IMG/VR virus record: IMGVR_UViG_2721755725_000010
Source: a virus
Lineage: Duplodnaviria; Heunggongvirae; Uroviricota; Caudoviricetes
Strand: one strand, 5' to 3'
DNA length: 51,823 bases
Part shown: in pieces, positions 39,001-45,000 of the stretch
How the letters are laid out: every line of letters starts with the position of its first letter
How positions within the stretch are numbered: position 1 is the first letter of the stretch
Program-made: the position numbers

Positions 39001-42000
39001 CTCCCGGCCGGGATAGTGTATTAAATCAGATATGGAGTGGGCTGGCTGTAGTCCGGAAGCCTGAATGACACTCGGGGACTACAGCCCAAGAAATGAAAAA
39101 AGGCCACGCAGTTGCGCAGCCTGATAAACCCTGGTTAAAATCCACACGATAACAACACAACAATATCAGTATCTCATGCTATTGCCCGAACCCATTCGGG
39201 CATTTTTTACCCATAAAAAAAGCCCCTCCGGAGAGGGGCATGTTTGCATGCACATTCTTTTTCTTGCATGGTGCCGGGTGCCTCCCGGTGAATTCAGTAT
39301 CAGCACCTGAATCCGCGATTATCACATATACCTGGTTGCTGATTGCCCCTCCGCACAGGGGGATTCACCATGCAGTAGTATTTTTAATAAACAGCAAATA
39401 AAAAAATCAAGCATTATGCAGGCTGTTTCTTTTTATCACCGGCTACAGCAATACCACAATGCCGCAGACCAGCACCCCATCCGCCAGCACCGACATGATT
39501 CTGCTGGTGAAATCCACCATCACCACCAGAAACAGCAGGAGTGCAGCCACAGCCAGGCGCAGTTTTACCGTCACTGGTGATTCTCCAGACGAAGACCCAG
39601 AACACCGGCAATCTCTTCCAGCACCTTGCGCTCTTCCGGCTCAATTATTTCTGACGTAAACGCGGACAGCGCAGGCTGATTACGCAGTACCTGTTCGATC
39701 TTCGATTTCTAGGAAGCCTCACATTCACCATCTGCACAGGCCACCAGGTAGGCAGCATTAATAACCGCCTGTGCCAGATTGAACCGCCCCGGAAATCCTG
39801 GAGACTAAACTCCCTGAGAAAGAGGTAAACAGGATGACTAAAAATACTCGTTTTTCCCCCGAAGTCCGTCAGCGGGCGATTCGTATGGTTCTGGAAAGTC
39901 AGGATGAATATGACTCACAGTGGGCGGCAATTTGTTCCATTGCCCCAAAGATTGGCTGTACGCCGGAGACTCTGCGTGTCTGGGTTCGCCAGCATGAGCG
40001 GGATACCGGGGGCGGTGATGGTGGGCTCACCAGCGCTGAACGTCAGCGTCTGAAAGAGCTGGAACGTGAAAATCGTGAACTGCGCCGCAGTAACGATATC
40101 CTTCGCCAGGCTTCCGCTTATTTTGCGAAGGCGGAGTTCGACCGCCTCTGGAAAAAATGATGCCACTGCTGGATAAGCTGCGTGAGCAGTACGGGGTCGG
40201 ACCGGTATGCAGCGAACTGCATATTGCCCCGTCAACGTATTACCATTGTCAGCAACAGCGACATCATCCGGATAAACGCAGTGCCCGTGCGCAGCACGAC
40301 GACTGGCTGAAGAGAGAGATACAGCGCGTATACGATGAAAATCATCAGGTGTACGGTGTGCGTAAAGTCTGGCGTCAGTTGTTACGGGAAGGAATCAGGG
40401 TGGCCAGATGTACAGTGGCACGTCTCATGGCGGTTATGGGACTTGCCGGTGTTCTCCGGGGTAAAAAGGTCCGTACGACCATCAGCCGGAAAGCCGTTGC
40501 CGCAGGCGACCGCGTAAACCGTCAGTTCGTGGCAGAACGACCTGACCAGCTGTGGGTGGCTGATTTTACTTACGTCAGCACATGGCAGGGCTTCGTCTAT
40601 GTGGCGTTTATCATTGATGTGTTTGCCGGATACATCGTGGGGTGGCGGGTCTCATCGTCTATGGAAACGACATTCGTGCTGGATGCGCTGGAGCAGGCGT
40701 TGTGGGCCCGTCGTCCGTCTGGCACCATCCATCACAGCGATAAAGGCTCTCAGTATGTGTCACTGGCCTATACGGAGCGACTAAAAGAAGCCGGATTACT
40801 GGCATCAACAGGGAGTACAGGCGACTCGTATGACAACGCGATGGCTGAGAGCATCAATGGTCTTTACAAAGCGGAGGTAATACACCGTAAGAGCTGGAAA
40901 AACCGTGCAGAAGTGGAACTGGCCACACTAACGTGGGTGGACTGGTATAACAATCGACGATTGCTGGGAAGGCTGGGCCATACTCCTCCGGCAGAAGCAG
41001 AAAAAGCTTATTATGCTTCCATCGGAAACGATGATCTGGCAGCCTGAGTTCACAGATAAAACACTCTCCAGGAAACCCGGGGCGGTTCACATCGCGTTTC
41101 TCAAACTTTCCTTTTTCCGGTTAACGTGACACACCAATAACTCTTGTCGAAAAAGCCAGCAAGCTGAAAGACCGGTATTCACCGCCGCCAGCGCGTTTAC
41201 TGTACTGACGCGATTTTCGGACATAAAAAAAACGCCTGGCGGCAGTTTTTTTCTTACTTTGCCATCGCGTACAAAATAGGCAAAATATCAGATTTATACG
41301 AAACATACGCGATTTAATTGACTTTTGCAATATCTCGTCGTGAAAAGGTCGCTTTTTGTTGCGCTCTTATTTTCACGGAGCAAATCAAGGATTCTCTATC
41401 GAGGCGCTTAAAAATATCGCACATCTCACGCCAGTAGTTCGCATAATTATGGCTCCAGTTATCAGGCTTAACTCCACACAGTCTGGCAAGCTCCTGTCTC
41501 TGGTAGACCTCACACCCGGTAACCCATCCTCTGACATCCTGTGCCGCCAGCCAGATCAACTTCTTCACACGCTCCAGCGTTTTCACTGCAATTTTTCTGG
41601 TACCAGACTGAGTTTTAAATTCATTCCACACCCACTGCGTTATCGCGATCTGATGCTCCCAGCAAATGTTTCCGCCATAACACCACAACAACCACGCCTT
41701 CTGATGTTCTTCCAGTTCCAGAAGGGTACGCCGCCACGATGATGTTGCAAACTCAACAGGACTGACCAGGGCAATTGATGAGCCTTTCGCCAGTGATTGT
41801 TTACCCGGGATTGGGGGATTATCCCGCGTGATCATTTTTCCGGTTACCTCATCGCGGTAACGAATTTTTTTGCGTCTGTAACGCCCTGTATCGAACAGGG
41901 CATTTTCCTGCCAGGCTTCCAGTTGACCTTTTGTCGCCCCACTGAGATCCGCAGTGGCAATCATGAGTTGCTCACGAACAAACTGTAAATACTGGTTATT

Positions 42001-45000
42001 CATGCACACCCCACCTCTGTAATTTTTATCTCCAGCCGTCCACCAGATACTGGCTTGCCACGTACAATATTGATTTCATCAAACTGCTCATTGAACCGCC
42101 TCGGTTTTCCTGGAGAGTGTTTTATCTGTGAACTCAGGCTGCCAGATCATCGTTTCTGATGGAAGCATAATAAGCTTTTTCTGCTTCTGCCGGAGGGATA
42201 TGACCCAGCCTTCCCAGCAATCGTCGATTGTTATACCAGTCCACCCACGTGAGTGTGGCCAGTTCCACTTCTGCACGGTTTTTCCAGCTCTTACGGTGTA
42301 TTACCTCCGCTTTGTAAAGACCATTGATGCTCTCAGCCATCGCGTTGTCATACGAGTCGCCTGTACTCCCTGTTGATGCCAGTAATCCGGCTTCTTTTAG
42401 TCGCTCCGTATAGGCCAGTGACACATACTGAGAGCCTTTATCGCTGTGATGGATGGTGCCAGACGGACGACGGGCCCACAACGCCTGCTCCAGCGCATCC
42501 AGCACGAATGTCGTTTCCATAGACGATGAGACCCGCCACCCCACGATGTATCCGGCAAACACATCAATGATAAACGCCACATAGACGAAGCCCTGCCATG
42601 TGCTGACGTAAGTAAAATCAGCCACCCACAGCTGGTCAGGTCGTTCTGCCACGAACTGACGGTTTACGCGGTCGCCTGCGGCAACGGCTTTCCGGCTGAT
42701 GGTCGTACGGACCTTTTTACCCCGGAGAACACCGGCAAGTCCCATAACCGCCATGAGACGTGCCACTGTACATCTGGCCACCCTGATTCCTTCCCGTAAC
42801 AACTGACGCCAGACTTTACGCACACCGTACACCTGATGATTTTCATCGTATACGCGCTGTATCTCTCTCTTCAGCCAGTCGTCGTGCTGCGCACGGGCAC
42901 TGCGTTTATCCGGATGATGTCGCTGTTGCTGACAATGGTAATACGTTGACGGGGCAATATGCAGTTCGCTGCATACCGGTCCGACCCCGTACTGCTCACG
43001 CAGCTTATCCAGCAGTGGCATCATTTTTTCCAGAGGCGGTCGAACTCCGCCTTCGCAAAATAAGCGGAAGCCTGGCGAAGGATATCGTTACTGCGGCGCA
43101 GTTCACGATTTTCACGTTCCAGCTCTTTCAGACGCTGACGTTCAGCGGTGGTGAGTCCACCATCACCACTCCCGGTATCCCGCTCATGCTGACGAACCCA
43201 CACACGCAGAGTCTCTGGTGTACAGCCAATCTTTGGGGCAATGGAACAAATTGCCGCCCATTGTGAGTCATATTCGCCCTGACTTTCCAGAACCATACGA
43301 ACTGCTCGTTGACGGACCTCGGGGGAAAAACGTGTATTTTTAGTCATCCTGTTTACCTCTTTCTCAGGGAGTTTAGTCTCCAGGATTCCCGGGGCGGTTC
43401 AAGAGAGTTTTTTGCGGGCATTTTGCCAGTCCTTTCGTGCCTGTTCAGACGGGAATAACCCGTAGCCGGAGTTGTATACATAACCACTGGCAACCAGCTC
43501 TCTGGCAAGAATGCTCATCAGATATCTTGTCGCACCTGTTTTAGCTTCCAACTGTCGTAATGTCTCGCGACCGCTCTGGCGCACAAGTTCGACCACCTGC
43601 TCTTTAATTTTTTTCCCGCTCTTCCTGTGTAAAAACTTTTGCCACAAGTCCTCCTTAAAATTACCTCATGACCTGAAATCAACACTTATCCCCTGAAACC
43701 AGGCGGAATTTCTGTATCCGGTTCAGAAATATGATTCACACAACGCTGTACAGGTGAACGTCCCAAGCGGATGACCAGTTCGTCCCATTTTTCGCGGAGT
43801 TTTGACGGGCTCATGATGTTTTTTACCCAGAATGGATCTCGCTGTACCCGACCAAACATTTCGCAAATTTGTCTGTGGCTTCTGCCATCCAGCATCCGCA
43901 TTGTGCGCACGTCATTGGCCCAGGCTGTCCAGTTAGGCTCTTTTGGTCGCATGATCTCTCCATCGTCGCTGGCAGCCTGTTCGTAAAGGTTCACGATCCG
44001 CCCCCAAATCCACTGCGCACACGCCAAATCCTCCCTGCTACCCCACTGGCGTTTTTTCGCACTAAACACAACCGCGTCGGGGTTCCGGATTAAAAAATCC
44101 TGTTCAGCGGTCTGCGGGTCCGGTTGCGAAGCTTCCGGACGAAAAGTGTTTTTATTCTCTGTAGTAATCTCTGTTGTATTCTCTGTAAGATCATCAGGCC
44201 ATTTTGACCCGATGACATTGGGTCGTTTTGAACCAATGGAGCGTTTCATTTTGACCTCTTCCATCGTGTCATTTTGACCTGATGGAGCGGCGCATTTTGA
44301 ACCGATGGATTCGTTCAATTTGCCACCATCTAAAAGCTCGTTCCCATAGTTGATCGTGTAGAAATTGGTCATATCGCGCTTTGATTTATTGAGCTTTTCA
44401 CAACGCAAAAGCCCCAGCGTTTTCAGACTTGCAAACGCGCGCTTTAACGTTGACTCTGACCAGAATGGGAACTGTTCCAGCCATTGTTCCGTTGTGTTGT
44501 AAATCCAGCGAACACCATCACATTCCATGCCGGAATTGGTATCTCTCAACCAGTAATGCAACTGCTGCAACACAATGGCTTCATTTAAGCCAATCTTCAT
44601 CGCAAGCTGTGTGTTTATAACCAGTGGGCGTTCAGCAAAAAGAAGGCTCATAATTCCATCCAGCTTTTTGTTGGTATTGCTGTCGATACGCAAGTTTGAA
44701 AGCAATTGCTTTTTCTATAAGTTCGTCAGTTTCACGATCCACTACGGCAGGATCAGCAAAAAGCAGTCCGGACTCCACCACATCGCCATATTCTTTGTTT
44801 AACCCGGCGATCATGTACGTGATGCTTTTTCCGTCACTAATTTCACGATACAACCTGAAATCATTAATCCGGATAGCCTCCATAATTGCAGGCACTAGCG
44901 CCGTGAACTTTTCACGCTTATCCCTAGTGTCGATAGCCTTCCAGCGTTCGAATATCTTCACTCGATTAACGCCAAGCGCTCGCTGATCAACCGCGCCACC

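Follow-up and report, generated by a model that had tools for sequence, protein, structure and literature searches.

Genes and insertion sequences at the early-late junction

The window, i.e., the whole stretch of viral DNA analysed (51,823 nucleotides), is a lambdoid prophage of enterohaemorrhagic E. coli (EHEC) O111:H8 that lies at the Qin site, carries T3SS effectors and is defective in several respects. The region of the locus is 100% identical in 27 complete genomes, the stated serotypes of which are O111:H8 or O111:NM. The genes espM1, nleG, nleF (truncated) and nleH1-2 are annotated in the window, as are a tape-measure gene interrupted by an IS91-family element and an integrase gene adjoining rspB. 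The prophage is Qin-like in carrying dicA, dicC and dicB. The locus was not located in the O111 reference strain 11128, where the best match of the Q segment covers 20% and lies in another prophage. The genes at the junction are all on the minus strand in the order rusA remnant, Q, TerB-family remnant, DUF3927, esterase, holin and lysozyme, with IS629 copy 2 lying between Q and the TerB-family remnant. Table 1 gives the features.

Table 1. Features of the early-late junction and the IS629-family copies of the window
Feature	Position	Strand	Remarks
IS629/IS1203 copy 1	5541..6850	+	Between an IS256-family transposase fragment and truncated nleF, another deletion junction; no target duplication
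TerB-family pseudogene remnant	39571..39779	-	Internal stop; RefSeq annotation and alignment to O145/O157 relatives, annotated TerB family there
IS629/IS1203 copy 2	39780..41089	+	Simple insertion (by alignment); orfA 39834-40160, orfB 40157-41047
Q-late gene spacer	41090..41313	-	First 3 bases CAT, putative imperfect right copy of the copy 2 target duplication
Antiterminator Q gene	41314..42009	-	Intact; 231-aa ORF, GTG start
rusA 3' remnant	42000..42091	-	Last 30 codons, ...EQFDEINIVRGKPVSGGRLEIKITEVGCA and stop; exact match to intact rusA of O145 RM8995
IS629-family copy 3	42092..43401	-	Deletion junction (by alignment); same orientation as Q
DUF977 5' remnant	43399..43647	-	Codons 1-81 of 140, extra frameshift near codon 12
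O-like replication initiator	43686..44651	-	Intact, 321 aa in RefSeq, immediately upstream of DUF977

The sequence-only reading had placed a single 231-aa Q gene between two inverted 1310-bp IS629 copies. Both parts of this description were confirmed, the gene by its ORF and a match to Pfam PF06323 Phage_antiter_Q (E = 2.8e-83, profile positions 1-217 of 220), the copies by a repeat search and a comparison of the copies. RefSeq starts the gene 6 nt later, which gives a product of 229 aa (WP_001064906.1) that recurs in a prophage of O145 whose nin-like region is complete. Q follows the nin/rusA genes and precedes the late operon of lysis and morphogenesis, all on one strand. Comparison with relatives shows it in native orientation and in its native place between rusA and the late genes. 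Copy 3 lies upstream of Q in the sense orientation; copy 2 lies 224 bp downstream of the Q stop codon, antisense to late transcription and inside the late-operon leader. The late promoter and the Q-utilisation (qut) region would be expected in the spacer between Q and copy 2, as a putative position. A simple consensus scan of this spacer gave no minus-strand promoter, and its RNA fold is unremarkable (z = -1.9).

Relatives of the O-like initiator at 99.7% identity are named 'phage O protein family', while a Pfam profile search with it gave no match. The DUF977 remnant matches Pfam PF06163 (E = 1.4e-8, profile positions 10-80 of 134) and is marked 'frameshifted; incomplete' in RefSeq. The gene downstream of O had been said to end at the IS terminus, and this was borne out: DUF977 is cut after codon 81, and its in-frame stop is the IS-terminal TGA (43399-43401, minus strand).

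The three IS copies are each 1310 bp long with the termini TGAACCGCC...GGTTCA. Copy 1 is identical to copy 2. The inverted arms 39779-41089 and 42092-43402 are 98% complementary and 1002 nt apart. Copy 3, rightly taken for a diverged variant, has 25 differences from copies 1 and 2, found only within IS positions 14-254 and 1151-1301; it shares 98% identity with these copies and 97% with that of pO111. OrfA matches HTH_Tnp_1 (E = 2.4e-12) and OrfB matches rve (E = 9.3e-28) in Pfam, and the two genes overlap at 40157-40160, RefSeq marking a 'programmed frameshift' together with an AL1L pseudoknot. RefSeq labels the transposase 'IS3-like element IS1203 family transposase' (WP_171877072.1) in copies 1 and 2 and 'IS3 family transposase' in copy 3. 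IS1203 is an isoform of IS629, of which three subtypes have been described (PMC3271280).

Target duplications and the site of copy 2

IS629 target duplications are 3-4 bp long, and matching ones were present at only 21 of 47 O157 insertion sites (PMC3271280). The plus-strand flanks in the window are AGG/GAG for copy 1, GAT/CAT for copy 2 and CAT/AGA for copy 3. No exact 3-4 bp repeat was found in any within- or between-copy combination of the six flanks of the three copies in both orientations; thus, these copies never exchanged flanks. Three other IS629-family insertions of the same lineage, used as a control, have perfect 3-bp duplications (TAT/TAT, CGG/CGG and GTG/GTG). Copies 1 and 3 lack a target duplication because they are placed at deletion junctions. 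The earlier claim that matching duplications are absent is correct for exact repeats. At copy 2, the window reads GCCAGAT[IS]CATCGCG, and GAT/CAT may be taken as an imperfect 3-bp duplication (2/3 bases matching).

In the IS-free relatives (O145, O157 and O111 strain 8E), the copy 2 site is GCCAGATCGCG, and the sequence runs uninterrupted as ...CCTGTGCCAGATCGCGTTTCTC... across it. Against a 101-bp probe of the site that carried CAT, some 250 other genomes scored 99%, equal to a single mismatch; the CAT allele at the empty site was found by the probe search only in strains 8B, 95NR1 and 95JB1. The target is the TerB-family pseudogene, which resumes beyond the IS from 41090. Copy 2 had been considered part of a deletion or inversion, a view abandoned here since its two flanks are contiguous in the IS-free genomes. 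The alignments show it to be a simple insertion without loss of flanking DNA.

Copy 2 would have made a 3-bp duplication, the right copy of which now reads CAT instead of GAT. It is unlikely that this mismatch is a trace of IS3-family transposition by copy-out-paste-in and not a later point mutation. In such a process, a 3-nt donor-site bridge could have been ligated into a partly matching target, and, if so, the CAT kept in the three empty-site genomes would mark the polarity of excision. Where target duplications are absent, empty sites should be compared before rearrangement is inferred; one of the two 'unmatched' copies flanking Q is a plain insertion.

Copy 3 and the loss of the nin-like region

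Copy 3 is flanked by the 3' end of rusA on one side and the 5' part of DUF977 on the other, with a breakpoint inside each gene. The rusA remnant lacks the N-terminal 90 codons, and the relatives are annotated with RusA upstream of Q. Between the two breakpoints, the relatives hold 4-5 kb of nin-like genes, which are absent in the window. One intact order in the relatives is DUF977, DUF4406, ead, ..., hokD, DUF968, rusA, Q; another is DUF977, ..., hokD, rem, ydfU, Q. By these alignments, the junction occupied by copy 3 is that of a true deletion. The comparison with related prophages, proposed earlier as a way of finding what was lost, points to these 4-5 kb, which begin at codon 82 of DUF977 and end at codon 90 of rusA. 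The supposed absence of a P/nin region holds for the nin-like genes but not for a lost P, as the closest relative of the replication module (99.7% identity) passes from O to DUF977 directly, without a P-like gene. Likewise, of the IS-mediated deletion and/or inversion suggested for the early-late junction, the deletion at copy 3 was retained and the inversion was not, Q being native.

Copy 3 is a mosaic. Its ends belong to the subtype of the katP-adjacent IS629 of pO111 and its centre (IS positions ~255-1150) is of the IS1203 type, which indicates gene conversion. In the table of variable sites, the pO111 copy, the copy 3 of strain 8E and the copy 3 of the window form a nested series. The 8E copy was considered as a pure subtype known elsewhere; it proved unique at 100% identity, and the comparison with pO111 and pO103 identified it as an intermediate mosaic, indicating stepwise conversion.

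Very probably, two IS629 elements of different subtypes entered the early-late junction separately, copy 3 at the nin-like deletion and copy 2 as a plain insertion. Copy 3 would probably be the older element. The segment from DUF977 to rusA was most likely lost through an IS-end (adjacent) deletion or recombination between direct IS copies. The IS1203-type copy 2 would then have been inserted into the TerB-family pseudogene by ordinary transposition, and the centre of copy 3 may later have been overwritten by IS1203-type sequence without crossover, as the mosaic suggests. In the population, near-precise excision and deletions from IS ends erode the pair; these would be the work, known from the literature, of the IS629 transposase and the IS-excision enhancer (IEE), a polymerase of microhomology end joining. 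In practice, the pair would be neither an inversion switch nor a composite transposon.

A variant of this history, in which the deletion arose by homologous recombination between direct IS629 copies in DUF977 and rusA and not from one IS end, is possible though somewhat unlikely. Its expected product is a hybrid IS without a target duplication, and copy 3 is indeed a mosaic of two subtypes. However, a single crossover would leave two parts and this mosaic consists of three, subtype ends around an IS1203-type centre, and the 8E intermediate indicates stepwise conversion. Furthermore, no genome with an IS at one position and an intact nin region was found in a non-exhaustive search.

Sister genomes and comparison with known systems

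The population sample comprised 35 complete genomes with the locus, the assemblies being consensus sequences. Nine distinct states were found: the window arrangement in 27 genomes, and eight variants in the other 8, which are scarred IS excisions or IS-end deletions. The deletions are 2.3 kb and more and start from IS ends or a few bp away; in 3 of the 35 genomes (7-55 62A, 7-32 9A and UTAK-13), IS-end deletions removed Q. Strain 8E is without copy 2, which was either never present or precisely lost. In UTAK-8, copy 3 was lost with a 10-bp IS-end scar (TGAACCGCC+A), and sequence left of copy 2 is deleted. UTAK-8 was rejected as an ancestral empty site of copy 3, since the remaining 10 bp of the IS end make this site an excision scar. 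Strains 8B, 95NR1 and 95JB1 have lost both copies, and their scars, GCCACATCGCG and GCTCA/AGAGAG, fit CA and TCA microhomologies. Strain 7-32 9A carries an IS with the copy 2 sequence in the copy 3 orientation and with both flanks trimmed, which no simple one-step model fits; to our knowledge, a product of this type has not been described. The flanking SNPs reflect recombination among paralogous genes of different prophages, which confounded their use for the polarity of the variants. Judged from these assemblies, the population pattern shows scarred IS excision, Q-removing IS-end deletions and gene conversion between IS copies, not inversion.

The nin deletion could also have arisen independently of the IS, by a spontaneous join of rusA and DUF977 that copy 3 entered later, the IS-free junction of 8B, 95NR1 and 95JB1 being ancestral. 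In these three genomes the rusA remnant does abut the DUF977 remnant without an IS. However, this order of events is distinctly improbable: an insertion into GCTCAAGAGAG cannot give GCTCAT[IS]AGAGAG, which has no 3-bp duplication and needs an extra T, whereas the control insertions of the same lineage make clean 3-bp duplications. The non-ancestral CAT in the three genomes is better accounted for if copy 2 was lost than if the site was never occupied, and UTAK-8 independently has its IS-end scar at the copy 3 site. Under the preferred history of two separate arrivals, 8B and 95NR1 were likewise rejected as ancestral IS-free states due to this CAT.

The inverted pair had also been thought able to invert or mobilise the Q segment. 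Recombination between the copies would flip Q, or a composite transposon would move it, switching late-gene and effector expression. The arms (1310 bp, 98% identical, 1002 bp apart) would suit inversion, and the central ~900 bp is identical in copies 2 and 3, so that these copies have interacted by recombination. Nevertheless, none of the 27 two-copy complete genomes is inverted: all align in one piece at 100% coverage, where an inverted isomer would align at ~83%, and the orientation and order of Q relative to rusA and the late genes are native. The assemblies being consensus sequences, rare isomers may have gone unseen. As to mobilisation, the outer flanks GAT and AGA form no duplication around the unit, and, in the 27 genomes, the IS-Q-IS unit was confined to this prophage, with no second occurrence at any other locus or replicon. 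The pair has a left inverted repeat (IRL) at each outer end, while circle formation in the IS3 family uses an IRL-IRR pair. An invertible or mobile Q cassette is thus highly improbable.

The locus matches the published behaviour of IS629 and IEE; it is already known biology and ordinary for EHEC, a textbook case of IS629 eroding and reshaping EHEC prophages. The prophage is stuck due to the deleted nin-like region, the DUF977 pseudogene, the interrupted late-operon leader and the split tape-measure gene. As a small hotspot of structural variation, the locus matters for O111:H8 typing and surveillance. To the study of IS mechanism it offers a natural collection of excision scars fitting microhomology-mediated repair, and it raises no new biological question. 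The natural series of insertion, stepwise conversion, scarred excision, IS-end deletion and flipped IS could serve to test IEE models on an IS-bracketed segment.

Composite transposons and IS-bounded invertible segments are similar in that an inverted pair of one IS brackets a short cargo. Unlike them, the locus has no unit-flanking duplication, second locus or inverted isomer in the 27 genomes, and its two copies are of different subtypes and would be separate arrivals. As in the nin5-type deletion of lambda, genes between the replication module and Q, presumably with terminators, were removed and Q was brought closer to the early rightward promoter; here, however, an IS lies at the junction and the prophage is Qin-like and defective. 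We know of no N-independence phenotype for this O111:H8 prophage.

With IEE-promoted IS629 excision and adjacent deletion (Kusumoto et al. 2011, per PMC9943667 and 10.1101/2023.06.07.543989), the sister genomes share near-precise excisions, the 10-bp IS-end scar, junctions fitting 2-3 bp microhomologies and the deletions from IS ends. IEE has been reported in O111:H8, with IS-adjacent deletions of a few nt to >40 kb, and has microhomology-mediated end-joining (MMEJ) activity (PMC9943667); precise excision of IS629 and 2-4 bp microhomology scars have been described (10.1101/2023.06.07.543989). The present case differs in being known from genome comparison alone and in the flipped IS of 7-32 9A. 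The IS629/IS1203 polymorphisms of EHEC prophages share the 1310-bp length, the termini, orfA/orfB with a programmed frameshift, many copies in prophages, the frequent absence of matching target duplications and several subtypes per genome. The locus differs from them in belonging to O111:H8 and not O157 and in the subtype mosaic of copy 3, but in nothing essential.

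IS copies and the early-late junction of the prophage

The antiterminator gene Q of this lambdoid prophage is enclosed by two inverted IS629 copies (copies 2 and 3), and a repeat search of the window found a third (copy 1). Each is exactly 1310 bp long with the termini TGAACCGCC...GGTTCA; copies 1 and 2 do not differ in sequence. Pfam assigns OrfA to HTH_Tnp_1 and OrfB to the rve integrase core. RefSeq labels the copy 1 and copy 2 transposase 'IS3-like element IS1203 family transposase' and annotates a programmed frameshift in it; IS1203 is an IS629 isoform (PMC3271280). The inverted pair and its flanks are thus as the sequence-only reading described them. 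Its interpretation, that the pair remodelled the early-late junction and could invert or mobilise Q, is partly supported: copy 3 marks a deletion, copy 2 is a plain insertion, and inversion or mobilisation is not borne out.

Coordinates of features in the window
Feature	Position	Strand	Remarks
Copy 1	5541-6850	+	flanks (+ strand) AGG/GAG
Copy 2	39780-41089	+	flanks (+ strand) GAT/CAT
Copy 3	42092-43401	-	flanks (+ strand) CAT/AGA
Inverted arms	39779-41089 / 42092-43402		1311 nt, 98% complementary, spacing 1002 nt
Q	41314-42009	-	full-length Pfam PF06323 antiterminator, E = 2.8e-83
Spacer, Q to late genes	41090-41313		
Terminator-like hairpins	39239-39222; 39122-39101		two, strong
TerB-family pseudogene deletion	~39648		157 bp, internal
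Sequence flanking copy 1	5055-5541; 6850-7289		
Effector cargo beyond tail-fibre genes	1-9500		T3SS: espM1, nleG, truncated nleF, nleH1-2, NleG-family pseudogene (annotation)
IS630-family and integrase fragments	1-9500		annotation
Split tape-measure (tail) gene	~19600-21370		IS91-family element: transposase ~20005-21192 and small ORF (annotation)
Tandem repeat	26690-27295		3 copies, 162-bp period, 87-93% identity
Esterase (DUF1737/SASA/DUF6645) region	36500-39600		
Length difference from strain E2855	~33900-35500		1 bp

Copy 3 marks a real deletion. On the plus strand, it has on its left the final 30 codons of rusA (the rusA stop codon overlaps the start of Q) and on its right the first 81 of the 140 codons of a DUF977 gene (Pfam DUF977), which carries an additional frameshift near codon 12 and, as had been noticed, stops in frame at the IS-terminal TGA. 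An O145 prophage with the same Q protein (WP_001064906.1; DNA 99.5% identical) has the order DUF977, DUF4406, ead/Ea22, small ORFs, DUF551, hokD, DUF968, rusA and Q, with ~5 kb between the equivalent points. In a prophage of a commensal strain, whose O/DUF977 module is 99.7% identical, DUF977 is followed by small ORFs, hokD, rem, ydfU and Q over ~4 kb. The proposed loss of a P/nin region therefore holds for the nin-like part, of which these two relatives carry ~4-5 kb; that a P gene was lost is not established, since in the commensal-strain relative nothing P-like separates O from DUF977. No target duplication is present or reconstructable at copy 3, a pattern classically left by an IS-end deletion or by two direct IS copies recombining. 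The rusA/DUF977 junction and the relatives holding the region uphold an IS-associated deletion at this copy.

Q itself is intact, and neither its place nor its orientation departs from the native one. Copy 3, oriented like Q, is upstream of it; early rightward transcription, or read-through from the IS, would have a much shortened interval to cross before Q, which might loosely be likened to a lambda nin deletion. Copy 2 is antisense within the late-operon leader, upstream of both terminator-like hairpins, and polymerase modified by Q would presumably read through. A promoter scan of the spacer did not locate the late promoter, and the spacer RNA fold is unremarkable. Q is not indispensable, as it is lost in 3 of 35 genomes.

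Copy 1 is likewise without a target duplication. It links an IS256-family transposase fragment to the C-terminally truncated nleF effector gene, and its site is another IS-end deletion junction.

Insertion of copy 2 and mosaic structure of copy 3

Copy 2 arose by simple insertion. The copy is missing from O111:H8 strain 8E, which has GAT at the site and reads ...CCTGTGCCAGATCGCGTTTCTC... there; the reading is identical in O145 and O157:H7 prophages that carry another Q and share the downstream module (TerB-family pseudogene, DUF3927, esterase). A 101-bp probe of the site, built with CAT, matched ~250 further genomes at 99%, a single mismatch apart. In the window the sequence is GCCAGAT[IS]CATCGCG, so that, set against the empty sites, the flanks of copy 2 are contiguous DNA with no loss. 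The duplication is the 3-bp GAT/GAT except that its right copy starts with C (a G-to-C mismatch); at three other IS629-family insertions in the loci compared, taken as controls, the 3-bp duplications are perfect (TAT/TAT, CGG/CGG and GTG/GTG). The unmatched flanks earlier taken as a sign of rearrangement are literally mismatched, but for this copy rearrangement cannot be read from them. The TerB-family pseudogene 3' of Q has an internal deletion relative to O145/O157 relatives; this deletion adjoins no IS, copy 2 being ~130 bp away.

Alignment of five IS copies gave 64 variable sites. The IS629 copy adjoining katP on plasmid pO111 differs from copy 2 at 62 sites; in O157, three IS629 subtypes 4-5% apart have been reported (PMC3271280). 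Copy 3 of strain 8E follows the pO111 subtype save for an IS1203-type tract at variable sites 467-869. The window copy 3 is of this subtype only at positions 14-254 and 1151-1301, to which its 25 differences from copies 1 and 2 are confined, with IS1203-type sequence at variable sites 380-1067. The nesting points to gene conversion in steps and without crossover, in which IS1203-type copies overwrote an originally different subtype; copy 2, which lies 1 kb off, would be an obvious candidate donor.

Identity and defects of the prophage

A 5.9-kb region was found unbroken and 100% identical in 27 complete genomes, of serotype O111:H8 or O111:NM where stated. Annotation of one matching genome describes a lambdoid prophage with late genes on the minus strand and a Qin-like early region (dicA/dicC-type repressors, dicB, ydfD, exonuclease); in sister genomes the integrase adjoins rspB. 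The prophage is defective in several independent ways, the IS91-family split being sufficient alone to block tail building. The tandem repeat lies within an 859-aa head gene (RefSeq: portal protein). The length difference from strain E2855 offsets annotation coordinates by one.

Excision and deletion in sister genomes

The population sample comprised 35 complete genomes holding the right flank at 100% identity. The window arrangement occurs in the same orientation in 27, and no inverted Q segment, whose isomer would show ~83% coverage, was found among the complete genomes searched, which speaks against inversion or mobilisation of Q by the IS pair. The remaining eight comprise strain 8E, without copy 2, and seven genomes with excisions or deletions. 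UTAK-8 lost copy 3, leaving the remnant TGAACCGCC+A, and has a separate deletion leftward from copy 2. Strain 7-55 62A retains copy 2 and is deleted from its right end for Q, copy 3 and 4 bp; UTAK-13 retains copy 3 with 'CAT' and lacks Q, copy 2 and part of the TerB-family pseudogene.

Both copies are lost in 8B, 95NR1 and 95JB1, with the junctions GCCA/CATCGCG and GCTCA/AGAGAG, consistent with microhomologies of CA and TCA to the IS end. The CAT empty-site allele is restricted to these three strains, which argues that they once had copy 2 and lost it. In 8B and 95NR1 (L012 and L013, 8521-9830), an extra IS1203 copy identical to copy 2 interrupts a ydaT-family gene of this prophage, flanked by a perfect TAT/TAT duplication; these strains lack copies 2 and 3.

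Strain 7-32 9A (L009, 4692-6001) has lost Q and has a single IS with the copy 2 sequence (one difference) in copy 3 orientation, with 4 and 3 bp missing from its flanks. Simple excision, adjacent deletion and single crossover were considered for this flipped IS, and none accounts for its structure.

The esterase region differs by 11-32 SNPs from that of otherwise near-identical O111 strains (loci L011, L013 and L002), which suggests recombination among paralogous prophage copies. Ordering of events by flanking SNPs is confounded by inter-prophage recombination.

The sister-genome products match what has been published on IS629 acting through its transposase together with the IS-excision enhancer (IEE), which is reported in O111:H8 and is described as having microhomology-mediated end-joining activity (PMC9943667; 10.1101/2023.06.07.543989). 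EHEC prophages have already been described with IS629 insertions that lack matching duplications, with deletions at IS ends and with excisions of the IEE type, and the phenomenon belongs to their well-known biology.
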